Below, in pieces: positions 6,101-50,293 of a DNA stretch of 64,000 nucleotides. This DNA is from Balanoglossus misakiensis (lineage: Eukaryota; Animalia; Hemichordata): the NCBI GenBank assembly GCA_040954595.2, contig CM082587.2, forward strand, positions 7,305,705 to 7,369,704. Direction: 5' to 3'. The notes under the pieces are model-generated. The model had not been told where the DNA came from and made no database searches. It worked only from the letters and a program-made list of their open reading frames with translations. Position 1 is the stretch's first letter; the number at the start of each line of letters is the position of its first letter. A program made the position numbers and the translations under genes.

Positions 6101-9100
6101 TTATCTACTGTGTATTTTTGCGTGAAATTGTGCATAATTTGACATTATTATACATCTATAAGTGCCGAGAACAATAGATTTTGGCGTGCAATAAAAAGCC
6201 GTACGGAACGGTACGTACGGAACGCGCGTTAAATAAGTTTTAGGTTTCAAGGCGCCCCAACTCACCTTGTACAGGTATGCGTTGTTATGCGGACGGTTTC
6301 AAGGTGCCCCCACTCCAACGCACGTGCGCACACGTAAACAAAAAACAAAGATGGCTGCTCACTGAGTCAACTGAGCGGTTTTCGATCGATTGTATCGGCA
6401 TTTTTGGCATTTTGAAAGCCAAGTAACATGCAACACAAGAACTAACGGAGATGTAAGATGTATAATAATAAGGTTATTACGAAAATACCGCAAAGTATGC
6501 ACTCGGACATTAGCGCAGCGCATTGCCCTCCGCTGCGCGTTGGGCGATACTTGGCGCTAATGTCCTCGTGCATACTTTGCGGTATTTTCGTAATAACCTC
6601 ATATTCTCACATCCTTCATGTATGAGGCTGTTTAATGCAACTTGGGTCACAACTCTTACCCCCCCCCCCCCCAAAAAAAAAACAACAAAAAAAAAAACAT
6701 GGTACATCCCGTTGCTTTAAATAACATGGTTGAATCCATAATCTGAGATATTGGGGTCAAAGTAGCTAGAAAGTGGTTAGAAACACACAATTTTAATTTT
6801 CTTGCCATATTTACTTGTATTGATCTAATTAATAATGATGGTAGCTTGGTAGAAGAATTTATCTCCCCCAGGGTCGTCAGTAGTCCGATAATACAATTCC
6901 TTTTAATCAAAACACACACACCTGAAACAATGAGAAAGTGCCTTGTTCAACGACACAACATCAGGGCCATGATCGAAGTCACCATCCTCTGAGGCCAAGT
7001 CTGGATCTCAAACTCACAACCTTCCAAATTGTGTGTCTATGTACCCCTCACCACTAGGCCATGTACTATGCCTCTCATTGTCAATGCTTATTTTCAATCT
7101 CGCATCTCTCGCAGAACTGCCATCGCCCAACAGCACGTACCACATCAAAGAGGTACCCTGTGAGTGTGCCAAGAATGGACACGGTTTTATTTGTCCAGAC
7201 AATGTGGGCGACCCGTTGCCTCCCAATCACCGAGTGGTGACTGGCGACACTCTCTTAGATGTCAGTGGTAGAAATGTCTCCGAGTATCTGCTCTACACTA
7301 CCGATAATTACAGACTCAATAGGTTGGTGGAGATTTACATCTGCTTTTATGGGAACATTAAAGGTCCATTAGCTGTAATTTTTGGGGTAGTTTAATTTTC
7401 ACAATTTCTGTTCTACATGTACATGTACTTTATACATATTCTTGTTTTTACTCCCCATATTATTAAGCCTACTATCCTGCTAATGGATTCCAGTCTGGAC
7501 CTGAATTCACTTTTGAACAATTTACAGTGCTTGTTACTACAAAGGGGCTGTGTTGAAAAACAAAATACTAAGCAACTAGTTATGTTTTATAGTAGTAGCA
7601 CAAGAAACCTCATGCAGATGATCTTAAAACCAAGATCCTGAAAAAGTGCATACGGTTGGAGTTACTGGACTCGATTCAAATTTAGCTGTAGTGCTTGCAG
7701 GGTTTAAAATTCTAGATTTGTTCCAATCATTGCTAATATTATAAAGCAAGCAAGCCCAAAGTGATCGTGTCCCGATCTGATAAAAGCATTTGTGGAGGAT
7801 CTCCAAGTATTGAAAATTTGGTAATTGGATCTTTCCTAATGTACAGGTATGGAGCTCTGACATTTGGCAATGTACGCCCGTATGTGCCGCCGGACTTTGG
7901 TTCTCTTGTGCCTGTCATCTACCGGAAACTGGCTGTGAGAAATGTCGCAATGGTGAGTCATGTGATTTTGTCTGGGTTTTTTTTTTAGTCACTTCTGGAA
8001 GCTATAACTGTGGAACTAAGAGTAGTCCGAACAGAAAATAGGATTGAACCGTTTACTCCAGGTTTGGCAGTAAATCCCTAAACATTGTCAAAGCGTGACC
8101 GGTTGTGAAGAAATTATGTAAATAGGAGATGTAGAAAAAATTTTGAGGCTATAAAGATATATTTCAAAGATAGTCATTCTAAAGCTGGTCTCTAATCATA
8201 CGCCCAGACTCACGCAAACGGTCTTTCAGTTAAAAATATAGAATTACATGTATCATGTACCCCACCGCATGATCTGTATGAGGTACTCCAGATATGGTTG
8301 TTATTAAGTTTTTAACATAAAGGAAATCCCTTAATAATTTTTCTGTATATTTATGCTTTTTGAAAAGATATTAAAACCTTTTTGTGTACATGTATTTCAT
8401 AAAAAGGTTTCTCTTATAAATTCATAGGAGATAATTACATGGATTTGTTTGCTTTGTTTAGGCTTGGTACAACAACAAGGGATTTCACAGCATGCCGACT
8501 TTCCTTAATACTTTGAATAATGCCATACTGAGAGCTAATCTGGACCCCCGTATCCATGGCAACCCATCAGCCTATGGAATCACAGCCATCAACCATCCGA
8601 TGAACGAAACAGACTCCAGCTTGTCGGCTGAATACATGTAAGTAGTGCTTTGACAAAGAGCTTCCATCCTGAAGATTTATGTCTCTACAGAATATGATAG
8701 ACAGCAGTTCGTTATGGTTTATCCGAAGCTGCTCCAATGGGCTTGTATTTCATGGGATTCAAAATTGAATCTGGTTGTGATATTCATGTATTGAGGAGTC
8801 AACACACACACACACACAGACACATACAGAGAGACACAGACACATACATGTACATGTACACACATACATAGACCTACAGACACACATACCGGTACACAGA
8901 CACAGAGACACAAATGCACAGAAACAAACACATACACACACCAACATTTGGCCACAAACTGATTTGTGACAGCTTTGACAAAGGCAAGTGTTCACTCTGG
9001 AATGTTTATTATTCATTTTTGCATCTGCCTCCTGTATGTATTTCTACGTTCAGCATTTTCAAAATTATCGTTATGGAGATACATGTACTTCAATCTGCTC

Positions 9101-12100
9101 TTCATTTCAGACTGAAAAGTACAGACGTGGAGGTCGCCATCTTCATTATTGTTGCGCTGTCGTTTGTGCCAGCCAGTTTTGTGTTGTTCCTAGTTTCCGA
9201 GAGGGCTTCCAAGGCGAAACATCTACAGTTTGTCAGTGGTGTCAATCCTGTGGTCTACTGGGCATCCAATTACACGTGGGATATTGTGAGTATAGAGTGA
9301 CTAAGTAAACCTATATATCCCACAGAGGTGCAGCCACCAGTATTTTACCTTTCAGTAGTACATCATTCTGTACCTTTATATTTGTTGTATGTACAGTAAA
9401 ACCTGTCTAAGAAATTGTTTAGTTTGCAGAGGTGGCTGGTTCATAGAGGTTCCTTTAATATGTGGTTCTGTGTCAAAGGGACAGGAAAATCTGTTCCATA
9501 TAGACAGGATTCCAGATTAGACAGGGTTGGGTTTAGACAGGTTTTACTGTACATACAAATGTAGCTAACTTCCTTGGAGGTGCTGGAACTTAGTGCAGGA
9601 CGCAGGACTCCTCCTTGTTACTAGAAACAAAGCAATCTCTGCTTTTTAAGTCTCTCTGGCAACAGTTTATTTCATTTCAATCAAGAACACTGGACCACCC
9701 TGGTTAGGAAGACAACTTCCAACTGACTTCATAGGTCACCAAGGGGTCAGGGTTCAAAGGGTACATGCACAAATCTTTGAATTTTGAAAATAAATCATGA
9801 TTTTCTTTTCACAGTTAAATTACTTTGTACCAGCTACGTGTTGTATTGGTATCCTGTTGTTATTCGATGTGAGGGCGTACACTTCATCCACCAACATGCC
9901 GGCTGTTATTCTGCTGTTCTTGCTGTATGGGTGAGTATGACTATCTCAGTCAATACACCTTATTTTCTTTAATAGAAGACAAAACAAAGATGAGCTGTCT
10001 GAATTTTCAGTCTGAATGCCTTTAAAATTATCCTTGGAATCCAATTATGGTATCAAAACATGATCAAACTGATCCTTGAAAAATGTTGTTTTTGATGACT
10101 ATTATTGTTGCTTGTAATCTGAAAATGTGAAACAAATTCGTTTTTTTAGAAAAAGAAAAGATACTTGTTGTCAATTACAGAATCTGTCTATTTACAAGTT
10201 AAGTTAGAAATTGCAAATTTTTTATCCCAAACTCATAGTGAGTTGAAGGATATGACATGTTCATGTCCATTTTCCTGCCACAGCCAACCATAACCATTCC
10301 ATCCAGGTTATAATGGCTTCTTATTTGCATATTATTTGTTAACAGGTGGTCTTTTACCCCTATGATGTATCCAGCGTCCTTCTTCTTTGATGTTCCGAGC
10401 ACAGCCTATGTCTTTCTCATTGTCATCAATTTGTTTGTCGGGATTACGACAGTCATCGCTTCGTTCTTCGTGGAATCATTTGCCGATGATGCAGTAAGTT
10501 ACAGTTTGCCCTCCCCCCCAAACCCCCTCCACCCATTTTGTCTGATTAAAAGGAAAGAAATTGATCTGTCATGTACTTTTTTGTTCTGTAGGAATTGAAG
10601 AAAGTGGGCTCCATTCTGAATGATGTGTTTTTGATGTTTCCAAATTACTGTCTGGGTCGAGGTCTCATGGATATCGCCTACAATGATTACTTCAATGAAT
10701 ATTACTATAAGATTGGTACGTATTACAACTTTAGATAACATCAATGTTCAAATTATTTTTAGTCTGTTTTTAGTCTATTAAACAGTGGAAGAGGAATTGG
10801 TGGGTTTTTTTCCTGCCAAAGTGGACATCACGTAATCCATGACAAATGTCACATCTATAAAGTATTACTTCGGAATTATAAATGTTTTTGTCAAAAATGA
10901 TAAACGTGTCGTATGTTTTTGTGATTGCCAGGTGAGTTTGACAAGATGCATTCTCCGCTGGAATGGAGACTGACAGCCCGTATGTTGACCATCATGGCCA
11001 TTGAAGGATTAGCTTTCTTTTGTATCACGGTTCTCTGCGAATACAGATTCTTCTTGAAGCCCAGGTAAGGGCCGTTGAAAAACCTAGATGCAGGTGTTGA
11101 GTACTGTAAAACACTTTATTTTCGCGATATCGAGAGAGACCACTGTTTCGCGAGTATTAATTTTCGCGTTCTTTTATTTCATTCACTGCATCGTTATCTT
11201 CAAAAAAAATTTCGCTATTTACGTTCTTGCATATTTCGCGAATATTTATTGCTCGCGAAAATAAAGTGTTTTACAGTATATATTTGATGCTAAAAATTTT
11301 GTGAATCTTCTCAGTAACTGTTTTCTTTGTATCTAGTTAACAGTTATCTGGATAATTGATACAGTATGTTTCACATACTACTGAACTTTTAAGTCTTCAT
11401 CTGTACGGACTGCTTATCCTGATGTTAAAATATTTTGGCTCTTTAAAGTTGATGGAATAATTCAAAATAAATTCTCAAACATGCAGATATTACAATTGTC
11501 CAAGAATGTCTTGTCTATCTTAAAGTTTCCTTTCTGTCGGATAATGTTTAACAAAAGTGTAGTCACGAAGAATTTTATTTCCCTTTCCCTGGGAAAGCTA
11601 ATGGCAGAATTTCTTGTCGTTTTTTTGCAGGAAGACAATATTCAGCAAACTGCCGCTTGACGACGAGGACAGCGATGTTGCTAGGGAGCGACAGAGGGTG
11701 CTCCGAGGGGAGGCCAATAATGATTTATTAAGACTTGTTAATCTTACAAAGGTAGGGAGATTGGTGGCACAACTGGTCAATAATGAATTATTACCCCCTG
11801 GGGGCTGTGTACAGCCAGTGCCCAGAGGAGAGACTGATAATGATTTGTTATGACTTGTCAATTTGACTGACGTTAGAAATAGGACTACTGGTAGCATCAT
11901 ACTGGTCAATAATGAGTTATTACCCTTTAGGTCACGTGGGTGTGGTAGAGTGTGTTCAGAGCAGAGATTGATGCTGATTTATTATGAATACACACATGTA
12001 GCTATTAATCTTACAGAATATGAAAGAGTATAGTGTCCAGACTCTAGTGTCACACTAGTCAATAATAAGTTATTACCTATTGAGGTCACATGGGTGTGCC

Positions 12101-15100
12101 AAAGAGTGCTCGAAGGAGAGTGACTTTAATACTCAGATTTCCCAATCTAACAGATTGAAATAAAAACAGTGATATCATCAATAATGACTGCTCACCTACA
12201 AGGTCACCAACAAGTTCTGACCTTATTCCAGTAATATTCAGATGCCAAGAGGTCAATAATTATAATAAATTTAAAATTGCAAGTAGAGGCCTAAATTTAC
12301 CATAAAAAATAGTTCGACCGAAAAGAATCATTCTGTCCTGGGAACAAAATGGAGGGCTATATTAGACAGATCTGTCGTTGATTTTGTCAAATTTGAAAAT
12401 AGCGATTCCGATTTGATGTTTACTTTTATTCAATATACAGGTTTACAAGAACAAGAAAAAGGGTAGACATTTGGCTGTGGATAGGGTGTGTCTTGGAGTG
12501 TCCCAAGGAGAGGTAAAGTTTGGATTTCATACTTTATTTATAGATCATATCTGTAGGAATATGAGCAAGCAAAAATACAAATGTTTACATTTGTGATGTC
12601 AAATAAATATAAATAGACCACAAAAGCCAGAATCTACACCATTATGATATCCACTGAAGAAATTTTATTTGTACTCTTTCAGTTGACTCTTAGTCTTACT
12701 GCACTTATATATTGTCATTTGATTTGGCTGTTTCACACAGTGTTTTGGTTTACTGGGTGTAAATGGTGCTGGCAAGACAACGACATTTAAAATGTTGACA
12801 GGAGACGAACTCATCACCAGTGGAGATGCCTTCCTAAATGGACACAGGTATTGATTTTGGGGGATTATCAGATATACAAAATAGTGCACTTTTAGTAATA
12901 TTGTATACCAAGCTGTACATAAATGAATGAGTGAGTGAGTGAGTGAGTGAGTGAGTGAGTGAGTGAGTGAGTGAGTGAGTGAATGAATGAATGAATGAAT
13001 GAATGAATGAATGAATGAATGAACAAACGAACACACAAACTCGAGATTGAGATTGAACCTGTTATAAGAAAGCAATCCATAACACATGCAAATCTTCAAC
13101 TTGATACATTCGCTGGTCTTTACATGTACAGTGCTATAAAGTCAGCTAGCTTTGAAAATGGGTGCATCCTTGTGCAGATCGTGGAGCTCAGACATTTGGA
13201 CAACCTTCACCAAGTTCATAATTGTATGTGGAATTTCTATTTCTCCTCTATTACAGTATTTTAACAGATCTTCGTAAAGTCCATCAGAACATTGGTTATT
13301 GTCCGCAGTTTGATGCACTGTTTGATGAGTTGACAGCTCGTGAACATCTGCTTCTCTACGCTCGTCTCAGAGGTGTTCCATACCAAGAGGAAAATCAGGT
13401 CAGTGGGAATCGCAATATTGTAACAAGACTTTACTTGGCAGTCATCTCTGAGGCATAAACTTAACCCTTTCACCGTCAGTTCCCTGTGTAGAGGTCCAGT
13501 CCTTTACCATAGAAAACTATTGGTTTGAACCAAACAATGGTGGTGAAAGGTTTAAAGCACAGATAACCCCCCCCCCCCCCCCCCATTTATGAAATAAACA
13601 GACTGTACTCCATGTCACACTGCAGTGTGAATTGGAATCAAAGCAATGCGATTCAGACGTCTGGTTTTGTCGGCATTCTCTTGCAAACTCTATATTATTA
13701 CAAGGGAACGGAAAATGCATTAGGACACCTGCGATTTATACTTGACTATTTTTTTCCCCTGTGCATAATTCCAGGTTGTTGACTGGGCGCTGAACAAACT
13801 GGCCCTACTCAAGTATGCGGACAGACCGGCTGGCACGTACAGTGGTGGCAACAAGCGTAAACTATCGACGGCCATCGCACTGGTTGGACATCCGCCGGTG
13901 ATATTCATGGTGAGACTCACCTCATAGAAAGATTCGTCAAATTGAGGTTTTCTCTGTCACTGTTTGGATAGCGTCGTCAGTGTGGATCTGAAAAGAAATG
14001 ATTTTTATTTGGAAAATGTGAATGGAACAGCACTTTCAAATGACGTTCTGCTCCTGTGCTAGAACTCCTTCAGTCAGTGAGCAGGTATAGCAGTTTCATG
14101 AAAAGGTGACTTTAAGAGTTGCTTTTCTCACTCAAGCACAAAGGACATTGCAACATTGCATTGGTATTGATATACAAGGTGTTTTAAATGTTAAATTGAC
14201 TGTGTGATATCTTGCAGGATGAGCCAACCACCGGCATGGACCCTCATTCAAGACGTTTCCTCTGGGACTTGATATTGAATATCATCAAAGATGGCAGATC
14301 TGTAATATTGACATCGCACAGGTAAATGAATATCTTTGTATCTCACGTACTTCTGATATATACGTGTAGATCTAGGGCTACATATTAAACATTTACAAGG
14401 TCAGTAATAGCATTGGTTCATGATTAGTAATGATTGAGAAAAAGTAGAAGTGGATGACCCTGTTTGCAGACCTCACCAGGTGTTCAGACCACACAAACCA
14501 AATGATACCAGGTGGTCTGACCACACAAGTCATACCATAGTTAAGACCTCACCAGGTGTTCAGACCACACAAACCAAATGATACCAGGTGGTCTGACCAC
14601 ACAAGTCATACTCATAGTTAAGACCTCACCAGGTGTTCAGACCACACAAACCAAATGATACCAGGTGGTCTGACCACACAAGTCATACCCATAGTTAAGA
14701 CTTCACCAGGTGGTCAGACCACACAAACCAAATGATACCAGGTGGTCACAGACCACACAAGTCATACCCATAGTTTAGACTTCACCAGGTGGTCAGACCA
14801 AGCAAACCAAATGATACCAGGTGGTCTGACCACACAAGTCATACCCATAGTTAAGACCTCACCAGGTGGTCAGACCACACAAACCAAATGATACCAGGTG
14901 GTCTGACCACACAAGTCGTACCCATAGTTCAGACCTTACCAGGTGTGGTCAGACCACACAAACCCCTGTGCAAACCCCACACCGGTTTACATCACATAAA
15001 AACAGGCGTAAAGACCCCAGGAAAACTTCGTCGCTGTTGTAGTTCTGATACCACATGCACTATAATGAAACCAGCAGTGTTTGTGTCCAGACAACAAATT

Positions 15101-17715: not shown

Positions 17716-20700
17716 ATACCGACAAGAGGCGGGAGATTCCAACCATTGTGTCAGTGTGACGATGTGAAGATTATATTCATATAGAAGCCAAATCGTTATT
17801 GAATGTAGATCTGTCGTTTGGAGTTCCTGAGAGCAGAACAAGACACTGCGTGACAGGAAACTGTTATTATACTGTCCTCTCTACAAGGTGCATCAACCAA
17901 GGAATCTAAAACCACGTCCATATGCTGTACTATAATCGTGAAAGAATTCCTTCTGTGTATATATAGTGCAATTCAACCTCTTCCCCATCCAGACAGGCCT
18001 CGATCTATATAGCTCAAAAAGCTAGTTAGTGCTATCATGTTGTGAAGTAACATGTAAAATAACTTCAGGAAAACCTGTGGAACGCTTGCTGGGGTGGTCT
18101 GGTGTGAAGAGATTACACCATATGCAGTATTAATAAAAAAGGCAGTTTTCTCACCAGTTTATGATATGAGGAAATCTTACAGATCCTTTCTTACTTCTCT
18201 GGGGAAAAAGCAATCGTCAAAATTCTTTTTAAAAAAATCCATGTTTCAAGTGGAACAGTTGCATGTATGCCCTAAAGGTTGTGTTCCATTTAATAGTGTA
18301 CAACCTGGGCCTTATTTTAAGAATACTCTCGGTTAAAAATTTGTGTAAACTTTTGTCACAAAGCAGTACTATTTTGATTATACCCCCCCCCCTCTAATAG
18401 TACATTGGGCAAGCGCTTCATGTTTTGTTTTGCCATCGATAGTGCGCGCTTCCAATCCAAGACTGGTGGATTTTTCTGCAGTCCGTATACGCACTGAAGA
18501 CACCGATTCTCAGACCCATATCCGACCATGCTGGAGGCTTTACCCTTTCTGTTGGACAATTATCCCTTGTATGCTACAGAACCCCGAACTCTGCAAGTTG
18601 TGCTGACTTCGAGTATTTACCCACACATCACATTTTTTATCCCATCCAAGGGTGGGATTCAACCCTGTCAGTTACAGAGTGTTTTTTTTAATCTGTTCAC
18701 TACAAACAGGGTGTTAGCTTCTACGTTCTTCTTCTTCTTCAAAAGTTGATTAATTACAGGTGCTAATTATTGGTTCTTAGGAATACAAAGGGGTAGCTGG
18801 TTGATCAGAGTTCTTGTCTCCACGATCTGACGCAAATAGTTTTTCAATCCTTTTCGAATTAGCATATATTAGAGATGCAGACAGACATTTAGGGTAAAGT
18901 TAAGGGCTGCATGGCAAGGAAATTGACCAATCACGAGACTTGGGAGTCTGAAATTAAATGCCACTAGTGGTCGAATGTAGGATAAACATCACATTGCTCA
19001 ATTTATACCACTGACTGTACCAGATGTGCTTTCCGAAACATTTTGTCCACATTTCAGTTTCTGTTTTTTGATCATCCAGATCAACTCTGTTGCATGTGAA
19101 GCTGACACAGTTTCAGGTGGAAGCGATGAAAGCTGTCAAAGCCAACACTTGATAGACTGGAAACCTGAACAGACTGAACACCCCCACCCCTCTCAAGGCA
19201 TTGCCCAATAGAGTCTGTGTGTACAAAAGAGACATTTGTATTACCAAACACGTCTGCCAAATGCAATATTTGTGCAGGGTATAGACAAGGTTGACAGTTT
19301 CCAGTTCAGTTATCGTATTTGAATTTTCTAAGGTTTCTATTTAATTTATAATAATAATAACGACTGAGATTTCATTTCTTAACAAAAATCATGTACCATC
19401 TTGCTGGCCCAAGTTCTTTCTAAAATTTAGCTACTATCATCTGATGTTAAATTTGCTTACTGTTCTTTTTAAGCTGGATCTCAAAATTTTCTTTAAAAAG
19501 CAAACTTTTAATTATATAAATTTAATGTTTTTGGAATATTCTTTTCAACGTAATTGTCTTATTTATTATTTTTTGTCCATATGTGATAATTTATTTTAAT
19601 CAATGTAAACTGTATTTAAGTTGTGAAAAGTTTGAATTGATCATCTCAGTTTATTTTTAAAGTTAAATTTAAGGTAACTTGTGAGGTTCGTGACAGTATA
19701 TTTTAATTACAAATTTCTTGGTCAGAGTCAGATTTTGACACCAAAGATCGGTCTATATGGTCATTTTAAGAAAACCTGATGTGTACACTGGCGGTAAACC
19801 ATGTCTCAGATTTTTAAAAGACACCCCCCCCCCCCCCATTATTTCAGGTCATATTTTCCAAGATCGTTTTTGTCATAATAATTTGTTTAAAACCTGGTTA
19901 TTGAGAATGCTGTATGATTGTGTGAAAACTTGGTGGACTTCCTATTATCACCATTTTGAGTTTAATACACTATAAAAGACAAAGAAATGTGTCAAAAGTA
20001 CAAACTGAGTGCAGGACGTTGCCATACACTCTTGTCATTATTGACAAGTTGTCACCTCTAAAAACCACAGAAAAACGAGTAGTTTGTATGAAAAGGGCCA
20101 TTTCAGGAATTTCAAAAGTACCCATATGAACCTCACAAGCTACCTTATTGGCAGCTTACATTTTGTTTGGTTCAGTTTTGTACTTTAGCAAAACCGTCGT
20201 TAAACTCACTCTAATGTTTTTGTGTGTGTGCCAATATTTGTGTTGTTTGATTTTATTTAAACACTGGGGGCGCTGTCACACTGCTACAGGTGATAACCAT
20301 GCATCTGGGTAGTCAACTCCGTAAAGCCAAAAATGTTGTGCCACTATCGTCCGTGCCACAGCTCATGAGAATTCTTTTGAATAAAAACAAACTTTGCATT
20401 TTTCCAGGAAAAAAAACCAAGGCTTGACTTTGAGTTCTCCAGTTGGCTCCAAGAGCCAAGGTTTCGAAGTCCGCGCAAACGATAGAATATCAACTAATGC
20501 TACATTGTACTCTAAACCAATTCCATCCCCATATCAGATTTTAGAAACTTTCAACAGCATAATTCGAAAATAACTATAATTCTGAATGCATATCATTTTA
20601 GTGAATTTTTTTGTCGTGTGAAATACTTCACAATTTTCTGTTTGAAACTTCAGAAGAAAAAGTTCTTTTATGAATTCTTGAAATTGGGGCAGCTCTTTTT

Positions 20701-31400: not shown

Positions 31401-32657
31401 ATATTATACCAGTATATTGATGGTGTAAATCACGCTATTTGATTGGTCGAGACACGACACGTGACCGTGATATATTAGCCATATACCACAGTCATATATC
31501 ATAGTTAAAGAAAATGCCTTTTTAAAATGTTTTATGCAAAGTTTCAATATACTGGCATAATATAATAGCAATAAAACACCCCCAGCCATGGTATACCACT
31601 CGATTTTGACCAGTTCAACTCCATATACGCACTCGCTATCGCTCGTGCGTATATGTCGTGAACTGGTCAAAATCTCGTGATATACCATGGCTGGGGGTGT
31701 TTTATTGCTTAAGTATCTCAAGGCATCAAATTTATGTTTACTGTAAAAGAAACCATGCTTGTTGGGGGCAAATTGATGATGAGGGTTTGATAACTTTATA
31801 CTTTCTCTGCCCTGGCTCTTTTTTTTCGGTGCTGGCTGTTATGCACTGATACTCTGGAAGAAATGTCTGCTGAGAGCAATGCACACTTCGTTATACTAAC
31901 CTTTCTTCTCGCCCCATGGAGTTGGTATATCATACGTTATTACAGCCTTTGCTTCTTTTTTCTTCTTTTCTTTCTTTTTCTGAGGATGTTTTAAAATACA
32001 TGGTTAAACTATATAATGGTTACAGTCTTTTAATCAGTTTATGAAATACACAGCAGACATATATTACATGTAATATGTATATTTTCAAAGCAACTGATAC
32101 CGTGGTTTGAATGTTGATTAAATTATTTCCCAATTTACATGTAAAAAATATCATCAGATACTACTAAATACGATCTTGTTTAAAGTCGATCAGCAAAAAA
32201 TTGGTCATTACCACAATTCCACATTTCATGTATACTTGCCAAAGAGACAGTAAAGACAGGGGAGTGGTAGGGCAATGGGACCGCAGCGGTCAAGCATATT
32301 GTACAATCCCATTACTTGAAATGTTGGTACCTCGTTTTGGTTCCCTTGTGCCTTCGCTTGCTTCTCCTGCTTTTGCTTGAACTTATCCAGCTTGGCTTGC
32401 TTTTTAGCCTCCTTCTTCAACTGAGCCTCTGTTTTTGGTTGATCGCCCGTCGTGGCATCATTATTGGCATCGCCGGCGCCGGCTGCAGACGCCGGAGGTG
32501 TGTCGTTTCCTGTTTCCATCCCCTGCGAGGGTTTCTGTCCTCTGTCCGGCGTATGTAAGATTTCAGAAGAAATCAAACGACACTCGAGTCTAACCTGCTG
32601 CCCGATCGCTATATGCTTCAAGTTTCTCGTCAAATTTCTTGCAATTCCATGCAACAT
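22486..32657 (-). CDS. VARS1: Valyl-tRNA synthetase (VARS1-type), 23 exons, with candidate N-terminal mitochondrial presequence
   Basis: Exons (minus): 32657-32331, 31979-31901, 31306-31206, 30896-30763, 30321-30157, 30033-29832, 29692-29584, 29402-29223, 28866-28742, 28445-28342, 27859-27701, 27531-27441, 27287-27182, 27029-26959, 26557-26327, 26172-26025, 25753-25626, 24702-24547, 24152-23946, 23795-23684, 23488-23313, 22892-22743, 22554-22486. Motifs: [13 protein letters not shown] (HIGH), [83 protein letters not shown]-terminal coiled coil. Confidence 0.96.
22970..23222. mobile_element. piggyBac-like MITE with TTAA target duplication
   Basis: TTAA-CCCTAATGCT...AGCGTTAGGG-TTAA (10-bp TIR, 1 mismatch) in a VARS intron. 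Confidence 0.65.
24241..25207. repeat. Pair of ~187-bp direct repeats (24241-24428, 25021-25207)
   Basis: Near-identical blocks offset by 780 bp, in the two introns flanking VARS exon 24547-24702. Confidence 0.9.
30562..30725. mobile_element. Decayed pogo/Tigger-like MITE
   Basis: AGTGAAACCTGTC...GACAGTTTTCACTG ends and repeated GTCCTTAATA motifs; resembles 9394-9549. Confidence 0.5.
31403..31709 (+). mobile_element. IR-body-IR-hairpin element B
   Basis: 18-bp inverted repeats 31403-31420 and 31544-31561 (1 mismatch), followed by a hairpin at 31567-31709 with loop TCGCTATCGCTC. Confidence 0.72.
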
Positions 32658-36395: not shown

Positions 36396-37246
36396 GCAAC
36401 GACTGTAGAATCACTCAGATAAAATAATTTATGGTGTAATTCACAAGATTTTTTAAAGACACTGTATTTTTTATGTATATAGTTTTTAAGAGATTTATTC
36501 TGTCAAATTGAACACAGTAGGTGATTTTCTTCACTTGTTGTCCGTTTGACGATTGATAATTTGCGAAAATCCACCGTATATGAACACTGTACCACATTCA
36601 GGGTTCTCCCAACGTTAGTCGGCCATGGTCGGGCGTGACCAGCACTCAAGTGAAAAAGCTAGCAAAGAAAGTCTGCCAGCAGGTACTGTTGTGTACTCAA
36701 TCTAGTCTGTTGTCTCATTTTGATACATTGATGAACAGGATTGACTTGCAACAGACATGAATATTAATGAGCACAAATATTAATGAACATGAATATTAAG
36801 GAGTAGTTGGCACTCAATGAAAGCTGGGCAGAACCCTGCACAGTAGGTTAACGTTTTCACCACTTGCTGTCCCAAGCAATTCTAAGTTACAATAGTACGT
36901 ATAGTTGTATGTTTCCCTGTCAACTTAAACCCAACTCTGAACAAAAACCAATGTTTTCTATGTAATATTATTCTAGATGAACTTTTAGGGGAACACAGAC
37001 TATTAATATAAGACATGTCATGTTTACAGGTGACCGAGAGTGCATGAATTATATCAGGGAGATTTTTTGACATTTTAAACAGTACATTTCAAGTAAAATT
37101 AAAATACCTCAGATTTTCATTCAGTCCAAGGACAATTATAAAAGTACATATATTTTGCTTGAAATGTTGCACAGCTGGAAAAATTTAGCTGGAGTCCCTG
37201 ACTTGTACGTTTTTTGACCTTTTTAATGGGACAGCAGTATCTGCTC

Positions 37247-37603
37247 AATTCTCCCTACCTTAAATAGGTTTTAAGCTACCCAAGTGAGTGATGAAAATCT
37301 CATATGGTCAACACAATTTCAAGATGGCCGATTTTTGCCATGTTTAAGAAATGGGAGCTAAAGTGATGATTGGCTATTCTGAAACTTTTTAACAGAAAAA
37401 AATAAGAAAATGTGAAAAATTTTAATGAGTTTAATAAGGTAACTACAAAGACAGACATGTTTGACCAAAGGAAGTCATGAAATACAGTATATATATCATT
37501 TCTTCTATCTCTTAGTACAGTACGGTTGGCGACTTTTCGCCCAGAATGCAATGTGATTGGACCCCCTAGCACAAAATGAAAACCTATTTAAGGCAGCCAG
37601 AAT
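37247..37603. mobile_element. TIR-bounded non-autonomous element
   Basis: CTACCTTAAATAGGTTTT (37255-37272) versus AAAACCTATTTAAGGCAG (37579-37596), extendable to AATTCT/AGAATT. Confidence 0.55.
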
Positions 37604-38394
37604 TATGTAAGCCTGTAAAATCACCCCACCAAGGTTTATTTTTGCTTCACAATGACAGAACTAGACTGTCTCTGTCGTTTCGGTTTCAAGGATGTTAATC
37701 CAGTGGCTACCATGGAGATGAATATAAATTGGGGTGGTTACCATGGAGAGTAAGACATTTTCTACTGTGTCTGTTCGAAAAACAATTTATGCGACGGCAA
37801 AATTTGCATTTTTGATTAACACGCAAGAAGACATTTGTACAAGAGTCTACTGGTACGCTTGACATAGTGTGTTCTTCCGGACAATCAAAGCCAACTACTA
37901 GTATGTCAACGATCACAAAACTTTGGTAAACACTTGTAAATAAATCTTCTCCAGTTATATAGGCCTAATGTGTAGGCTTATTACACTATCTAACCATGGT
38001 TGTATGTGTCGATATCAATACATCTCTGTTGAATACGGTCAAGAAAATAACCCATTGCCCACCCTGCGTATGCGTTAGTCCCAAAATTCCCCAAATCCAT
38101 AAGTTTGTAATACAACACCATAAACCATAATTTAAACCTAAAATGAAACATTTCAATGCAAAGTTAAAACAGGACAAATGGTTGAGGCAACTGAGCCGGA
38201 TTTCAGGGAGCAGACTTCGTACCTGCTGTAAATCCTTGCATTTAGAGTAAGACCAACAGTAATGTGAGGGCGTACCAAATAAGATCAGCTTAGCTTCACA
38301 AAGTCTTCAAGCGCCACTGTTGGGTTCACACCGGACAATTTACACCAGACTAACACACGTGCGCGTTTTTACTATAAATTCTCCACTTTCCCTA

Positions 38395-40596: not shown

Positions 40597-40673
<77 letters not shown>

Positions 40674-41379
40674 AACAATATATCGCTGACATATTTCATA
40701 AGTTTTCGTGCATGATCTCTGGATTTAACTGCTAATAAAAAGGTAATTTTCATATTTAATTTACTTATTAGCGATGTATTACTGAATTTACTGCATATAG
40801 TGATCCAGGCCTAACAGAGATCTGGTTGTTCTAGGAGACAATTGCTTGTGGCATTTTGTCAGGCAAACTATGCACACGTGAGCATATTCAGTTCATATGT
40901 GGCCTGTCTTTCGAAAGCAGCGTGTGGTTTTATGTGCATTGGACCGGATACAGTAGCTGGACGGTGTTGTTGGAAGTGCTGCGCAGATCAAGTGAAAGTC
41001 TAGCTGTGGTACGCTGCTGTACCTTGGGGGCTGATTACATGTCCGCGGGGGGTCTGCTTACCTATTTTGATTGCATTCGAAGGTTATAATGTACTTAGTA
41101 GAACTACACACTCCCAAAACGGGTCACATGCAGTAGAAACCTGTGCGCGTAACAAGGTAAAAACTTACCCAGTAAATACTCCATAGACATTAGCAATGCA
41201 ATGATCCACGATGTACGGGCCGATGTTTCTTCAAAGTGGTCTTGAATAATGACAAAGAGGGGACCGATAGCATGATACGCCCCAAATACATATATGCTGC
41301 AGACATGGGTGCCAAGAACAACCAACCACCCGACGCAGCCACCGTCTTTGGTCGCGGCTTCTGGGTTTTGGACGTCCAT
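38395..41379 (-). CDS. SLC16/monocarboxylate transporter family MFS protein (~476 aa, 4 exons)
   Basis: Exons 41379-41169, 40595-40452, 40162-39362, 38669-38395 total 1431 nt in frame. Motifs: DGGCVGWLVV (DGGWGW-like), YVRKRYTLAN, LIDFYGWRGA, LIGPPCAGFIYDVTGDY. Confidence 0.9.
40598..40668. repeat. (GA)n microsatellite forming the acceptor polypyrimidine tract of SLC16 exon 2
   Basis: On the minus strand, (TC)n runs directly into TAG at 40596-40598. Confidence 0.95.
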
Positions 41380-42941
41380 AGCTCAGTAAAAAATCAACGA
41401 TATATTCAGACAGTAGTTCCCACTCCCAAGTTACCATTCACACACATTTACAAGATTGAACAATGCTCACAGGGGCATGGGACCTGACCTTATGCCAGAA
41501 GGTCAGGTGACACGTACCACGACCCAGTTATAAAGGGGGGATTGTTCGTTTTTACGGCATGGGTGCGGCGGAATGTCAGAAGAACCCATGTTTTTTTTAA
41601 CCAAAGAACTTTGGGGAACTAAATCGTGTGCAGGGCTTAATATTGGATGTTTTCCGCTATCCTATATCGACAAACGATACCAAGTTGAATTTGTGGAGAT
41701 TCTAGAACCAATGTGCGCATGCTTACCAATACAGTTTTAAACTCCTGCAATGGGTGGCTTAATAAACGGGTGAGGCACCCATTAATTATATAACTTGTTC
41801 ATTTCTATGTTTACGGCCACAATCAGAGGCGGGCAATATGTTTGTGTGTATACCCATCAGATTTGCAAAGTGACTTGAGCTGCATGCCCACGAGTGTGCC
41901 ATGCTCTTAGCAATGACAAAACGTTAGATAACGAGAAAAAAATCAAATTTCTCTCCAATTTCTGGCAACCTCTATTGGTGGGCAGGTAGCCACATATACA
42001 TAAGAAAAACTGCACTTTCGTTTGCCATGCATGACTCAACAATAAAGTGAATGAGCGTAGCCAAAAATAGACGAGTGCGTGTTAATTCGTGTTTTTCAAG
42101 CAGACCCATCTTTCATCTTTTTTATTCGTGTAAAATTGAATTCAAGTATTAATACTCTTTACTAACACGGTTGGAACTATTTTAGGATAATTGCATGTAG
42201 ATGAATTGACAGTCAGTATACTCAGCATACAACGTAATGCACTACTACGTATAGGCATAGACCCGTTGTTTTTGTCATATTATCAATATGTAGAATTACT
42301 GTAATTTCCCCATGTGCAACGAAACTACTCATTTTGTTCACATTTTAATCGCATGCAATTATCCCATACACAGTTCCAATCAAACTCGTCGTGGTCGGCG
42401 CAATGCAGTTAAAGCATCAATGTCCACTAAATATCACAGGTTTTATTGGTATTCAGAAACCCTTCACATGTCTTCTGGAAAAATTGGTAAAGGTTACACC
42501 TGCCTACTGGCAGGGAAGAAGAACGCCCTAGCATGACGATACGTGAATGGGGGTCATTATGATAAACTGAGGAGTCTCATGAGGAGGGGGGGGGGGGGCT
42601 TGTATTTCCTTTCAGATTTTGAAAGGGGTGAATCGTTAGTAATGTTATCCCCTAATTATTCCACGTTTTATATCATTGCGAAATTTTAATTCAAATTTTA
42701 TATTCCTTGCTTCCGGTGATAAGTGAATAAATCTTCTCTGCCTTTGCACAGATTTCTGCTCTCTGAAAGTTTTCAAATACTTATTTCATTAGTGCAATAA
42801 ACATTCTCACTTTTGGTAAGAAATATGATGAAATACATATATTTGCAGCGTTAATTGTGTGACGCCAAAGAATGATAAACTGACCTCATGAATTTGAAAT
42901 TCGACAAAGACGTCTTTTGGGGGAAATCTTAACTAAATCTT

Positions 42942-44757
42942 TTACATGTATTTAGCTTTTAACAAAGTGGTATTTTCTTGAATGATTTGTAGGCACAAGT
43001 CGATATGCTTTCGATGAGTTCGAAAACATAAAATACATATTCTGAGGCAATATTTTCCCCTGATCATCACGGATGACATGAAGGTTCTTCCGTCAGCCAA
43101 AATGTTTTCTTGGAGCTCCCTGTTGAATTTGTCGGTCAGGTCATCGTCTTTGGCGTCGTAGTAGAAGACCACTGTACTAAGTTGTGGGTTCAACTTAGAT
43201 ACAAACCCTTCCATAGCTAAAAAAAGAAACGAAATAAATAAATCGTATTTTAACGGTAACGTCGAAAACGTTATTTTAGGGTGGTTGATTACCCTATTTC
43301 AGAAGAAAATACTCGTATTTCTCAATGTGATAGTTTCAGTTGTCAAAATCTAAATATTTCTACAAATTGTCAACATTGGTCCCTTGCATGATTCCCCGTT
43401 TTCCTGACAAAAAGTGAAATTTTAATTTGGCAGCAATGTAGGAAATATCACACCAATAAATATGGTGTTATTTTCATATATTCCCCGTGCGTACTAAACA
43501 TGTGACAATGCATATTACGAAAATCGGTCTCACATGTAATCTTTTCGTGGAAATACTTGGCTAGCACCAGCTTTTCTTCCAGTGCCGTTGCAAACGCTTT
43601 CACGCCAAACAACTTCAACGGGAGCCACATTCTTAGACCCCTATGAAAGAAATCGGGTAAAAAGCGCATTGGACAACATTGGGTTTCCAAAATCAAATTT
43701 TCCGGGGAACATAAACATCATCGCGCGTAGTACATGTGTATATAGCTTGAATTTGAAACATCCCTTTACCTCGAGTGTTTGGTTAGCTCGAACGACAGCT
43801 CGCACGGCGAAAATTCTAGGCCTCCAGCATCTCCGAGATAATTGGTGTCTTTTGCTGTTGAAAAGGCCTTGCGAAGTTTGCAACCATCACGAACCAGTAC
43901 TATTCCTGAGCCATAAGGGAGGAACAGGCCTGAAATGTTATGACCACTTTATATCATCTGCGATTAATTCACACGCGCATAAAACCCTCTAATGCTGTGT
44001 GACACAGAGGTGGGCGGTGGGCGAATCAAGCTGCTTACCTTTATGTGGATCCAAGATGGCCGAATCACTCCTCTCAATTCCCTTGAAAAGATGCTTGACC
44101 TCACCAACCAGAAGAAAGAATCCGCCATACGCCGCGTCCACATGAAGCCACACATTGTATTCCTCCGCCACATCGGCTATTTGGTCAATAGGATCTACAC
44201 AGCCGCTTACAGGGTCGCCCGCACTTGCTAGAATGATAAAAGGTTTCAAACCGTCCTATCAAGGACGAAGAGATATATGTTAAAAGAAACTGGTGATCCT
44301 AAACGACACCCTTTGCCTGTAGCATCTTTTCCCTCGATTTATATGATCGATTAGCAACGCCACAGAGTGTACTTTGGTGTCTGCGCTTTTGTATAGACAC
44401 ACATAATCGTTCGATTATAATCTAGATATTCAATCACCCTTGAGATCAAATAGGAAGAAATTACCTCTTCGTCCTTTGCTATATGTTTCCTCAAACTTTC
44501 CACGTCCATTGTCAAGTTCTCTTCTGTCACGGGGATTTTTCTGACAATGGCGTCGCTCATACCGAGCACTCTGGCGGATTTCTGGAGGCAATCGTGTGCC
44601 ATTTCCGTCACATACACAACAAGTCTTGAAAGAAAAAAACACTTTTGCGTGAACCGTGAATACATATTTTAAGCTTCTTGCTCTGCCAACAATCCTACAT
44701 TTAAATTGCACAACTTAACACGTGACGTGATAGATATATTTTATACAAGAAATGGCG

Positions 44758-44827
<70 letters not shown>

Positions 44828-45795
44828 GAAGAACTGGACACAAATAAGACAATATTAGTACTTGTCATAGTCTTTTCCTTTTATGTTCTTGCTTTCTCGG
44901 GCTGTTGCCACGGCAATAAGAGTTCCCGATGACCCACCACTTGTTAAGTTCCCAGCATGCCCTGGTGGATAGCCACATAGTCCGGCTGCCCAGGAAACCA
45001 ACATATTTTCCAATCGAACCCCTTCCGGCCCCATACTGAAGACTCCTTTTTTAGAAATAAAGGTTATATGGATCTTTCATTAACAAACAAACAAACAAAG
45101 AAACAAACAAACAAACAAACACTATTAATTAATTAATTAATTAATTAATTAATTAATTAATTAATTAATTAATTAATTAATTAATTAATTAATTAAATTA
45201 AATTAAATTGCACAACTTAACTCTGTCCCTTTAATAGACGTGCCTGCTATCCAGTTTGTGTGGCAAAAACTTGGAATGGGTTGAAACATACCGGTATATT
45301 TGTTTGTCGCGGCTGTTAAGAAATCCCCAATGGCCGAAGGAAAGAGTCCTCCTCCTGAAATAAATGCTAAATGCATACCATGAGCAGTTGTAGCGCCTGA
45401 TTTTAAAACAGTCTGCTGATACAAATCCAAAAGCTTATCTGAAAGCGAAACATAGAGAAAATCCAGTCGTCATATAGGCACACGCATATGAATGAACAAT
45501 TGTATGCAATCAACCAGCTAAATTTATTGTGAAAAATATTCGAAAGCAGTAACAACAACACCACAACGTACGCACCTAAACTGGTACCATGGTCTGTGAT
45601 AGGGCTATTTAGAATGCCCGATGTCTCATTGCCACCTTCTCTCATTAACACTTTACAATCCTGAGTTTCCAATCCAGCCAAGAAATTTTCGGCTGCATCC
45701 ATGGTTCTCTTCATTAACTCATGCCGTTCATCATGCCCAGGCTCCAAACACATCGCTCCAGCCTCAAGATCTTCAAGTCTCGCCGACAGGTCCAT
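42942..45795 (-). CDS. Group II PLP-dependent (aromatic amino acid) decarboxylase, microbial-type, copy 1 (~489 aa, 8 coding exons)
   Basis: Exons 45795-45576, 45438-45292, 45045-44862, 44624-44465, 44255-44039, 43929-43770, 43640-43534, 43216-42942 total 1470 nt with consistent phases. Motifs: GNLTSGGS, AHDCLQK, WLHVDAAYGG, DPHKGLFLPYG, NYL loop, ELTKHSRGLRMWLPLKLFG, LRICILCFRTH. Confidence 0.9.
44761..44824. repeat. (GA)n microsatellite
   Basis: Read directly from the sequence. Confidence 0.95.
45083..45205. repeat. Compound (AAAC)n/(TTAA)n microsatellite
   Basis: Read directly; the (TTAA)n part is self-complementary. Confidence 0.92.
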
Positions 45796-47369
45796 TTCCA
45801 CGTCTGATGGATTCCAAAAGAAGTATACTGGGTCTAGTATTGTTAATGTGCCATTTAACCCACCCCAAATCAAAGACTGGTGTATACAAGTACACTGTAC
45901 ATGTACTGATGGATTGTTAAGGCTTGTACCAATGACTATGTATTGACCTAGGACCCCCCCCCTTTTTTTATTGAAGCCACCCTGTTCAACCCCTCGTTCT
46001 CGCACAAGTGGATGCGTTGATTAATTATTCGTCAGCAGCTTGTCAATCTTTTGCTTTTGTTAGTGTCCCCATTTTCCGAGCTCGGTTCCTGCGATGTAAA
46101 GTCCGTCTGTCGATTTTATTTTCACCTTTCTAGGACATTTCGTGGTTATTTGAGATTTAGTATTTCCGAACGAAGGCACGGGCTCTTCAATCTCCTAAAA
46201 CTATAGATTTCAGGGCTGGTTGCAGCTCCGCGGCAAGTGACCGTGTCCAAAAATGCCATGTAAAAAATGCAAAGTATGTACGACGGTTATACCGCAGTGG
46301 TTGACTACTGGAGTGACCTGGACCTAAGTGAACTGTCTCAACAAAGCATGATATTATAATTGCAAGTGGCCCACCTAGTTAGGTTAATGGCGAGGTTTCG
46401 CAGCCCAGCCACTCACGTAGCTGTGCGTTGGTGCATATAGGTATTTAAAAAAATAACCAACACATCCATCCATACAAACACATTCAAAGCATGTTTAAAA
46501 TCATGAACCGAGCCTCAAGTTGAGATAGCAAAGTGCCCATCTTTCATTTCAATACCATAGTCTAATTAAGTAACAATTAAGTAACACAAGTCTAATTAAG
46601 AACGTAAAGAAGCTTACCTTTCGATAATGTGCTTTGGTATGCACAGTAAGCCACAATCACGTGGGGATTGGATTGTAATGTACACGGCGATCGTATCCAA
46701 TTCCCACGTGACTGTGCAGTAAGCAAAACAGTTGACTTCCTCGACCAAGCAGAGCGCACCCATTGGCAGAATTGAGCCAGGGAACTAGTCTGACCGCCCA
46801 TAGATCCCCGAGAAAATTCCAACGCAGGTAAATTATCGATACGTATAGTTCAAGCCATATTCCAAAATTACATTTAGTTCTTATGAAGAAAGTAAGTTTT
46901 CATATCCCAAATACTGGCAACTCAGCTCCATACTTGCAACAATAAAATAATAAGTTTTATAGTTATTGTAGCGTGTTACTTTCAAAATATAGGTCTTGCA
47001 CCCTAATGTATCTTTATTTTACTAGTAATGTCTTTGTTTAAAAAGAAAGCTCTCTCTCCAACCCTCTGTATTTAGCGTTTAAAGGCCATTCATGCACTGC
47101 CATTTGAGGACAAAGAGGGGCAGCTGCCACGATGATGTCATCCTAGATGGAATTCTTGAGGGCAGTTTACACACTTTGGGGTTTGACAAACAGTTGTACC
47201 TGCAGGTATTATTTTGCCACATTCTACCGCATTTCCGTGTTACAGCTTCATTGATAGGAAAGACTATGAAATTAATAATATTTGCAGTTTTAATTCAGTG
47301 ACGCCAGAGAATAATAAAATTCGACAGACGAAGACGTCTTTTTTGAGGGGGGAATCTTAACTATATCTT

Positions 47370-50293
47370 TTACATGTATTTAACTTTTAACAAAGTGGTA
47401 TTTTCTTGAATGATTTGTAGGCACAAATCGATATGCTTTCGATGAGTTCGAAAACATAAAATACATATTCTGAGGAAATATTTTCCCCTAAACATCACGG
47501 ATGACATTAAGACTCTTCCGTCAGCCAAAATGTTTTCTTGAAGCTCCCTGTTGAATTTGTCTGTCAGGTCATCGTCTTTGGCGTCGTAGTAGAAGACCAC
47601 TGTACTAAGCTGTGGGTTTAACTTAGATACAAACCCCTCAATAGCTAGAAAAGAAACGAAAGAAAGAAATCGTATTTTAACGGTAACGTCGAAAACGTTA
47701 TAAAAGGGTGGTCGATTACCCTATTTCAGAAGAAATTCTTTCTCAATATGATAGTTGTAGCTGTCAGAATCATAATATTTCTATAAATTGTCATTCGTCC
47801 CTTGCAAGATGCCCCGTTCTCCTGACAAAAAGTGAAATTTTAATTTGGCAGCAATATATCACACAAATAATACCAATTTTATTTTTCATAGTTTCCCCTT
47901 GGGTACTAAACATTTGACCATGCAAATAATGAAAATCGGTCTCACATGTAATTTTTTCGTGGAAATACTTGGCTAGCACGAGCTTTTCTTCCAGTGCCGT
48001 TGCAAACGCTTTCACGCCAAACAACTTCAGCGGCAGCCACATTCTTAGACCTCTGTGGAAGAAAACAATTGTTGCATATTTTAATCTCCTAATCTCGAAT
48101 GCGCATATATCAAGATGTCTACTATATACAGTACTATGTTGACACAATACGATAAATACTATGACAGAACTTCATGACCTCTGCGCGCGATCTGTGCAAT
48201 ATGGATTTTATTTTCATGAGTGAGAAGGTGTATTCTTCCGAGTATTTTTACGAGCGATAGCGAGTAAAAATGCAGAAGAATACACCTTCTCACGAGTGAA
48301 AATAACATCCATATTGCACAGATCGCGCGCAGAGGTCATGAAGTTCTGTTATTATTGCATATGTTTCCCCAGATTTGACGAAAATCAAAGTTTCGATCGT
48401 GGCGTATTGATTTTCATTACAGTGATGCGCCAAAGGCTATGCAACCCAGAGAAGGCCGCTCATTGGCCAAAATGACGCAACCTTTGTTATGCAAAGAAGG
48501 GTCATGTGGGGTCATTCCATCAGTGGGTTACCTGAGGTCGTGAGATCGCAGCGATAAATTTCGAAACACTGGCGATAGCGAGAAATTTCCGTAATTTTCG
48601 AGGTTCCAAAACACACTGACAACTAAATGTTCTGTTATTCTGACGATAGTTGGGAAGGATAATAAAAGAACGTGCCAGAATGTTGAAAAATCCGCATGTT
48701 TCGGCGATCATGTTGGCTCATTTCATCGGTGGTTTAGCTCAGGTCGCAAGATAGCATCGGCAATATTTGAGAAACTGGCGATAGCGAGGGATATTCCGAG
48801 GTTCCCAAACATACTGCCAAATAATGTTTTGTTATTCTGACAAAATTTGGGAAGGATAAGACAATGGCATCTCCGAATGTTGAAAATTCCCCACGTTTCG
48901 GAGATCATACTCCAGCTCTGCCGACGGCGTTCAATGTTTACAAACAAAACGTAGTCCGGCTTGTTTTTACTCATTTGCATATGGGTTGTGAAAAATACCA
49001 CTTTGTCACGCGCACAACTAAAACAACAATCGGCTTTTTTGCGACTGAAATAAAACTTTTGTTATATCCTCCGGAGGTTTATATGAACTCCAAGTGATTG
49101 TGTAACAGAACGAGGGTTAAACTTTGAAAGATACGATCGATTGAAGGGGAAATGGGGGATCTTATTCTTCTGGATGCTCATTTGCATATGAGCTCGCAAA
49201 AATACCAGAATTATTATTGCACGGCCCGCTTGGAATACTGTGGTACATATGCAATAATTTGTTGTATATTGTCATCAATTCTAAGCAGTAAAACAGTATC
49301 ACCACGTGTGTGGCAGTTCCGTTTGCTGTATCCCAAACACTCTTTTGTGTTCGTACAATTTGCCACCACGAATTTGAAACAAATGCTGGTCCCTTTACCT
49401 GGAGTGTTTGGTTAGCTCGAACGACAGCTCGCACGGCGAAAATTCTAGGTCTCCAGCATCTCCGAGGACATCAGTGTCCTTTGCTGTACTCGTGGATTTT
49501 GCTGTACGCGTGGAGAAGGCATTGTGAAGTTTGCGACCATCGCGAACCACTACTATTCCCGAGCCAGACGGCAGGAACAGGCCTGAAATATTATGGAGGA
49601 AATATACCACCTTCTCATTCAAGTGCCATAGCTGTGGAAACGCTAGTCTGGTCCCCTGCCCCATTCCCACCGCTTGCTGCGCTACACTAAACATTGGAGG
49701 CATCCATCTTGTGGTATTTGTTTCATGATAAATGGCGGGCCAGGTTTTTTTTGGCCAAGATCGGGTCGTACCTGATCCCTTTCCTTTTAGCGTAGCGCAG
49801 CCAGCAGTGGGAATGGGGTAGGGGACCAGACTGTTCCACCAGGGAGGCGGGGGGGGGGGGGGGGGGCGGAGATATGCTAATTACCTAGCGGACATAGCAT
49901 ATCCCCCCCCGCCCGACGGAACAGCTGCGTTTCCACAGCTACAAGAGCCACCGTGAAACCGCAGTTGGAAAAGTTATCCTTAAATTTCAGACCAAAACAA
50001 ACACTTATAGTTTCATCATTGCTTGGGCACACACCAACTTTTTTGAGGTGGGCGGTAGGTGAATCAAGCTGATTACCTTTATGTGGATCCAAGATGGCCG
50101 AATCACTCCTCTCAATTCCCTTGAAAAGATGCTTGACCTCATCAACCAGAAGAAAGAATCCGCCATATGCCGCGTCCACATGAAGCCACACATTGTATTC
50201 CTCCGCCACATCGGCTATTTGGTCAATAGGATCAACAGAGCCGCTCACAGTGTTGCCCGCATTGGCAACAATGATAAAAGGCTTCAAACCGTC
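47370..50293 (-). CDS. PLP decarboxylase copy 2 (exons 5-8 only in window; intact gene or truncated pseudogene unresolved)
   Basis: Exons 50293-50077, 49582-49399, 48052-47946, 47644-47370 have the same phases as copy 1, open frames and canonical splice sites; exons 1-4 are not seen before the satellite. Confidence 0.75.
48164..49258 (-). mobile_element. IR-body-IR-hairpin element C (reverse orientation)
   Basis: Hairpin 48164-48349 (loop GAGCGATAGCGA), then 14-bp perfect inverted repeats 48351-48364 and 49245-49258; the host intron is 1346 bp versus 129 bp in paralog copy 1. Confidence 0.78.
49629..49941. mobile_element. Nested MITEs in decarboxylase copy 2 intron 5
   Basis: Outer 15-bp TIRs TAGCTGTGGAAACGC / GCGTTTCCACAGCTA; inner element 49645-49832 with ~45-bp imperfect TIRs AGTCTGGTCCCCTGCCCCATTCCCAC. 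Confidence 0.75.

Follow-up and report, generated by a model that had tools for sequence, protein, structure and literature searches.

Three hairpin-ended elements in a hemichordate genome, candidate Crypton derivatives that may be read by the shape of one DNA strand

What could move short, gene-less DNA elements that share a layout and next to no sequence? Three elements, here called A, B and C, raise this question in a 64,000-nucleotide stretch of the acorn worm Balanoglossus misakiensis (GCA_040954595.2, contig CM082587.2, positions 7,305,705 to 7,369,704; this whole stretch is the window, and positions below are counted within it). An initial annotation of the window had proposed that the three belong to a mobile system that reads folded DNA, Crypton-like or of the HUH type, rather than to ordinary miniature inverted-repeat transposable elements (MITEs). 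Here we show that A and B are abundant mobile elements that insert without target duplication. We further infer, for both family and mechanism, that A, B and C are somewhat more probably than otherwise non-autonomous CryptonA elements moved by a tyrosine recombinase on one folded strand.

Mobility and ends of the elements

Element A (6145-6603, plus strand, 459 bp) lies in an intron of an ABCA-type transporter gene and element B (31399-31712, plus strand, 314 bp) in an intron of a minus-strand valyl-tRNA synthetase-like gene; both are non-coding. Their empty alleles and ends were read from contigs of three sequencing runs of a single sample. Two runs, X1 and X2, contain alleles without the element at both loci, the empty sites in other haplotypes that the initial annotation had named as a check of its claim of mobility: the empty A allele joins 6119 to 6603 with 27 diverged flank letters, and the empty B allele joins 31388 to 31743 with 40. 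In addition, loose ends occur behind 6603 in 18, 13 and 2 contigs for A and, for B, before 31399 in 10 and 10 contigs and behind 31712 in 8, 8 and 3, so that each element stands among many different flanks. Summed contig depth, taken as an indicator of abundance and not as a copy number, reaches 1e4-5e5 at A against 24-68 in its flank and 1e5-5e5 at B against 40-210, a difference of about thousandfold or more. The empty alleles show no target-site duplication at B and leave an ambiguity of 3 bp at A, where ATT stands at both junctions and the left end could be shifted by up to 3 nt. The right flank of A (6604-6619) weakly resembles A's own start, which makes the apparent hairpin run past the element.

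The cuts are placed alike in all three elements, which start with TTAT and end with the hairpin arm followed by CATA (A and C) or TAA (B); the immediate left and right flanks are A and TT for A, T and GT for B, and A and GT for C. Among the large contig groups, the right end continues with GTAT for B (7, 6 and 4 contigs) and with TT and then ATTAT for A (17 and 12 contigs), and the remaining groups begin with ATA, ATAT or TTA. Moreover, two head-to-tail pairs of B have spacers of 12 and 24 nt, both with TT at the start and A at the end. These groups, few in number and conditioned on the window flank, suggest a target A^NTAT that resembles the element's own junction, A^TTAT. The B junction may also resemble that of a salmon non-autonomous Crypton. 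The proposed distinction from ordinary MITEs is borne out for A and B, which lack both terminal inverted repeats at the two tips and a target-site duplication; a MITE derived from a DDE transposon is ruled out, as the inverted copy is internal and no duplication is present.

Element C (48160-49257, minus strand, 1098 bp) is non-coding and sits, in reverse orientation, within an intron of a gene for a pyridoxal-dependent decarboxylase; its ends are placed by analogy with A and B. The intron that bears it measures 1346 bp against 129 bp in the paralogue, a contrast that had been taken as a sign of mobility; the lengths are as claimed, and the argument is weak because the two introns do not align and therefore provide no empty site. 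The tandem paralogues themselves (42919-46020 and 47347-50409) have exons that agree at 86-95%, and between matching exons lies an intron that cannot be aligned. Within the body of C, a 31-bp direct repeat (48970-49000 and 49177-49207) carries the octamer motif ATGCAAAT in each copy, in element orientation, and is possibly a promoter remnant. The longest frame of C, of 112 aa, gave three matches when compared with 1.84 billion proteins; all three were translations of tandem repeats that scored by repetition, and they were rejected.

A common layout with marks on one strand

All three elements consist of a terminal repeat, a body, an internal inverted copy of the repeat and a hairpin. In A, the terminal repeat (6144-6157, plus strand, with 6144 read as flank) matches its internal inverted copy (6456-6469, minus strand) at 14 of 14 positions, and the hairpin occupies 6471-6599 (minus strand; z = -13). 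In B, the repeat (31399-31420, plus strand) matches the copy (31544-31565, minus strand) at 21 of 22 positions and is followed by a hairpin at 31567-31709 (minus strand; z = -19). In C, the terminal repeat (49245-49258, minus strand, with 49258 read as flank) matches 48351-48364 (plus strand) at 14 of 14 positions, and the hairpin lies at 48164-48349 (plus strand; z = -23). The hairpin is separated from the internal repeat by 1 nt in each case and has arms of 65-94 bp. The inverted-repeat pairs and long hairpins are thus found where the initial annotation had placed them, with some corrections: its repeat length of 14-18 bp fits A and C and is too short for B (22 bp); its common start ATTAT is TTAT in all three, as the first A belongs to the flank in elements A and C and does not occur in B; and its element ends are slightly off, as A and B run 3-4 nt beyond the hairpin.

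The three hairpins are the longest inverted repeats in the window, and none of 200 shuffles of each was as stable as the real sequence. Comparison of A, B and C found a single likeness, a 16-nt loop match between B and C, which agrees with the earlier statement that arms and bodies are unrelated. The shared loop TCGCTATCGCTC occurs exactly twice, at 31633 (plus) and 48263 (minus), with the polarity relative to the body that had been claimed. A chance origin of this architecture is ruled out: none of 100 resampled 50.6-kb sequences contained a comparable hairpin, and the motif GCGN(N)AGC, with 17 occurrences in 50.6 kb, would mark all three hairpin centres on the matching strand with a chance of roughly 6e-10.

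The interruptions of the arms had been described as symmetric CTCG breaks giving TC/TC mismatches. The mismatches are present; the informative strand, however, is the opposite one, on which six of the seven two-by-two loops of the window copies are tandem GA/GA pairs, and the seventh, in A, is GA/GA in most contigs of the A family. Counted by element, GA/GA accounts for one of two loops in A, three of three in B and two of two in C, which has a degenerate middle loop besides; the distal loop of C, previously written as CTCG against CTCA, is still a proper two-by-two mismatch, closed by a wobble pair. GA/GA always lies on the strand that also carries, at the hairpin centre, a loop of the DNA mini-hairpin type GCGNAGC/GCGNNAGC. 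On the minus strand of A, GA/GA stands at 6503-04/6566-67 and the cap GCGCAGC at 6532-6538; among variants of the A family, 6535 G>A gives the cap GCGTAGC in most contigs and 6541 T>C restores GA/GA next to the cap. On the minus strand of B, GA/GA stands at 31600-01/31675-76, 31620-21/31656-57 and 31633-34/31643-44, with the cap GCGATAGC at 31635-31642, and C has one GA/GA at 48218-19/48294-95 and another adjoining its cap, GCGATAGC at 48254-48261. The distal GA/GA is 29-36 nt away from the cap. The body of C also holds two repeats of about 206 bp, 75% alike (48502-48908, plus strand), each with a further GCGATAGC cap (48572 and 48778) on the strand of the terminal cap.

In DNA hairpins studied by nuclear magnetic resonance, CGAG opposite CGAG gives tandem sheared G.A pairs (PMC10085684), and GCGNAGC/GCGNNAGC sequences are described as extra-stable DNA mini-hairpins that are much weaker as RNA and occur at single-stranded DNA priming sites (PMC13037366). 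The preference for this strand rests on these two reports because standard energy models barely separate the strands. An RNA structure as the selected fold is ruled out by the DNA-type caps and by the occurrence of both orientations relative to the host genes. Recognition by structure was a good inference of the initial annotation, made for the less informative of the two strands.

A further feature, absent from that first account, ties the layout together. The internal repeat and the first hairpin arm are complementary to both joined ends of the element, and joining end to start in a computed fold lengthens the hairpin by the whole repeat in all three elements, despite their unrelated sequences, and leaves a 2-nt bulge at a distance of one or two bases from the junction. 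As the joined ends pair with the internal copy in three of three cases, the repeat pair and the hairpin are one device, and the internal copy together with the first arm may be called a splint. A linear single strand is predicted to fold both its ends onto this one internal segment, and a closed circle to form a rod with the junction in duplex.

A folded-strand model and its rivals

We believe that the end rules favour a tyrosine recombinase as the enzyme. The junction lies in predicted duplex, the element and its target have a core of a few bases in common, the cut is fixed, the target is not duplicated and only one strand bears unpaired marks, all of which fits an enzyme of this kind that makes a single exchange resolved by replication. 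A Cre-like recombinase, probably of the Crypton group, is likely to cut the folded single strand of these elements. The observed starting point is that one strand holds the long terminal hairpin, the tandem GA/GA loops, the GCGN(N)AGC cap and the internal mirror copy of both ends. This strand, if released, for example at a replication fork, would fold so that the mirror copy splints the 3' end beside the 5' end, whereupon a recombinase provided in trans would join the ends into a closed single-stranded circle with its junction in duplex beside the 2-nt bulge. A single-strand exchange could then take place with a junction-like site in the chromosome (A^NTAT on its top strand, against A^TTAT in the element), where the bulge and the G.A pairs might choose the strand and impede a second exchange; replication would resolve the junction and copy the second strand, leaving an insertion without duplication. 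Both the release of the strand and the existence of the circle are presumed in this model. Precedents exist for its later steps in integron and CTX sites, which recombine as folded single strands by one exchange followed by replicative resolution (PMC3458562, PMC5027507). Animal CryptonA elements, in turn, are described as recombinase transposons without reverse transcriptase and with abundant non-autonomous derivatives, their ends being unresolved and a hemichordate being among the hosts (PMC3212892).

Several observations weigh against this model. An autonomous CryptonA partner would encode a DUF3504-type tyrosine recombinase and share the ends; no recombinase gene is tied to them here, and a Pfam scan of 283 of the 339 stop-to-stop frames of at least 55 aa in 1-50,940 (the other 56 being mostly alternative frames over exons and microsatellites) found host genes only. 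No direct end-to-start junction, as expected of a circle, is present among the contigs listed, and all reads come from the one sample. A's own target is TTCT and not NTAT, and the left flank of B ends in T. Cryptons have been described with direct repeats of 4-6 bp, seen here in A only and at 3 bp. Nearest-neighbour energies differ little between the strands (by +0.2 kcal/mol in A, -3.4 in B and -0.9 in C; the 1999 and 2004 DNA sets give identical values and count as one result). Phage and bacterial DNA often contain the cap motif by itself, and no long-armed copy was found among 23 metagenome, 97 genome (GTDB) and 17 viral pattern matches, the last from scans with 4, 6, 0 and 7 matches; arm scores in the collections were at most 18 or at most 34, against 84-100 for A, B and C. 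Because the pattern matches lack long arms, the cap motif alone is not diagnostic. A search of prokaryote assemblies for PF12012, aimed at stray host contigs, gave 0/5, 0/7, 0/400 (one more unscored), 0/3, 0/55, 0/2, 0/1, 0/1 and 0/1, and is uninformative as the control never matched; Rfam gave no match in 1-51,000. As a separate observation, the best of 104 pattern matches (arm score 34), at L098:9970-10060 in a Peribacteria metagenome-assembled genome, is a shorter, imperfect intergenic hairpin with the same type of cap and a symmetric CTCG break, and the viral contigs L009 and L010 hold arrays of a small CTCGCT(N)CGCTCG stem-loop in non-coding DNA.

Crypton derivatives could also move as ordinary double-stranded circles, following the Goodwin model, with the palindromes serving as duplex binding-site arrays or cruciforms and CTCG as a directly repeated protein-binding word. 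A duplex circle is the published model for Cryptons (PMC3212892, PMC13465315), the computed strand energies are nearly equal and a single-stranded intermediate was not observed here, yet we consider this route unlikely, as it leaves unexplained why arms of 65-94 bp covary perfectly across unrelated families, why a DNA mini-hairpin cap sits at the exact centre, why the GA/GA loops keep to one strand and why the complement of the joined ends is bulged. We give about the same low weight to non-autonomous elements of the Helentron/Helitron2 type, moved by an HUH Rep-helicase and ending in an unusually long terminator hairpin. Their coarse layout is similar, with a 5' repeat at the end and an inverted copy just before a terminal hairpin (PMC3627910, PMC4067079), and the T start, the lack of duplication, the internal tandem repeats of C and its 8-9 bp 5' stem would all fit. 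The dimensions, on the other hand, differ: the internal repeat lies 134, 147 and 191 nt from the 3' end in A, B and C as opposed to 20-60 in Helentrons, the arms of 65-94 bp end 3-4 nt from the tip as opposed to a palindrome of 5-10 bp at 8-35 nt, and the flanks given above are not a Helentron TT insertion with runs of T on both sides. 5' hairpins are no better than shuffles (z = 0.2, -1.8 and 0.2 for A, B and C). On the GA strand, the target tetramer and the element end are also compatible with a peel-and-paste geometry, and HUH enzymes supply the single strand themselves; they cut single-stranded DNA, however, and the bond to be cut here is predicted to lie in duplex.

Less probable still are non-autonomous DIRS-like retroelements, in which the TC strand would be transcribed and the GA strand would be a single-stranded cDNA that anneals its ends on an internal complementary region before integration by a DIRS recombinase. 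That region is essential in DIRS and complementary to both termini, and the cDNA is single-stranded and antisense (PMC7192593); A has an identical trinucleotide at both junctions and C has two octamer motifs near its start. The DIRS region, however, is an exact complement, as opposed to the constant 2-nt bulge found here, long inverted terminal repeats are absent (the repeats are 14-22 bp), B and C have no common junction trinucleotide, and the window frames scanned contain no reverse transcriptase remnant.

The surroundings of the elements are those of ordinary spliced genes, for an ABCA transporter, a valyl-tRNA synthetase-like protein, an MFS protein and two pyridoxal-dependent decarboxylases. 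Ordinary-looking MITEs with terminal inverted repeats lie at 3326-3536 and 11102-11278, which are of the same family, and at 9385-9558, 49645-49832, 19670-20147 and 37247-37604. A 77-bp tandem repeat (6.4 copies, 14468-14964) occupies an ABCA intron, and an 88-bp satellite (148 copies, 97% matches) fills 50939-64000 and continues past the window end.

Relation to known mobile systems

The elements are real, with mobility shown for A and B, and are likely members of a known group with an undescribed end design. The papers searched describe no Crypton ends with a hairpin, G.A pairs or a splint; Repbase, Dfam, figures and most of the Glomhopper supplement lay outside this search and may bear on novelty. 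The words "hairpin" and "palindrom" have no occurrence in the two Crypton main texts checked, and supplement 1 of PMC3212892 enters both the termini and the mechanism of animal Cryptons as not determined. More tentatively, animal CryptonA might be eukaryotic integron-style elements, in which a recombinase peels off one strand, a built-in splint closes it into a single-stranded circle, a rod that bears sheared G.A pairs and a mini-hairpin cap as its marks, and a single exchange takes place at a target of 4-5 bases. The substrate would then be defined by its shape and not by its sequence; we regard this general form as slightly less probable than not. If true, it would provide a structural signature to classify many abundant unclassified repeats, the first eukaryotic DNA transposon known to recombine as a single strand in the manner of integrons, and a connection from the ends of Cryptons to the internal complementary region of DIRS. 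It would also offer a concrete substrate on which to test a recombinase that would take nearly any cargo placed between short ends and make no double-strand breaks.

Like CryptonA and its derivatives, as described in PMC3212892, PMC5753468 and PMC13465315, A and B have no target-site duplication, the tips (TTAT and CATA/TTAA) are not true terminal inverted repeats, and the elements are short, gene-less, high-copy and found in a marine invertebrate host. The terminal direct repeat of 4-6 bp matching the target that characterises Crypton F/S is missing (A has 3 bp, B and C have none), and such a repeat is not reported for CryptonA in the account of PMC3212892. Unlike what is found here, these papers report no terminal repeats for animal Cryptons and assume a double-stranded circle. 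Helentrons, including HINE and DINE-1, and Helitron2 likewise have an asymmetric pair of inverted repeats with a terminal hairpin after it, lack a duplication and start with a 5' T (PMC4067079, PMC3627910): a repeat of 8-15 bp with its 5' copy 0-4 nt from the end corresponds here to 14, 22 and 14 bp at 0 nt. Where Helitron2 has a 5' terminal hairpin, C has a stem of 8-9 bp, B a weak one and A none. Helentrons and Helitron2 differ in that our hairpins are about ten times longer and run to 3-4 nt from the end, the internal repeat is far from the 3' end and there is no TT target. With DIRS the elements share an internal segment complementary to the joined termini (three of three, with the 2-nt bulge), and in DIRS a tyrosine recombinase integrates the circle (PMC7192593); they differ in having no reverse transcriptase, a bulged complement and a long perfect hairpin where DIRS has its right repeat. 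Finally, if the model holds, the likeness to integron attC and CTX sites would extend to a folded single strand, unpaired features that pick the strand, one exchange beside a short core and replicative resolution (PMC3458562, PMC5027507), whereas the setting would be eukaryotic, the site would be divided between the two ends of the element and reassembled on an internal splint, single extrahelical bases would give way to tandem G.A pairs and a mini-hairpin cap, and dispersed targets would take the place of an attI platform.

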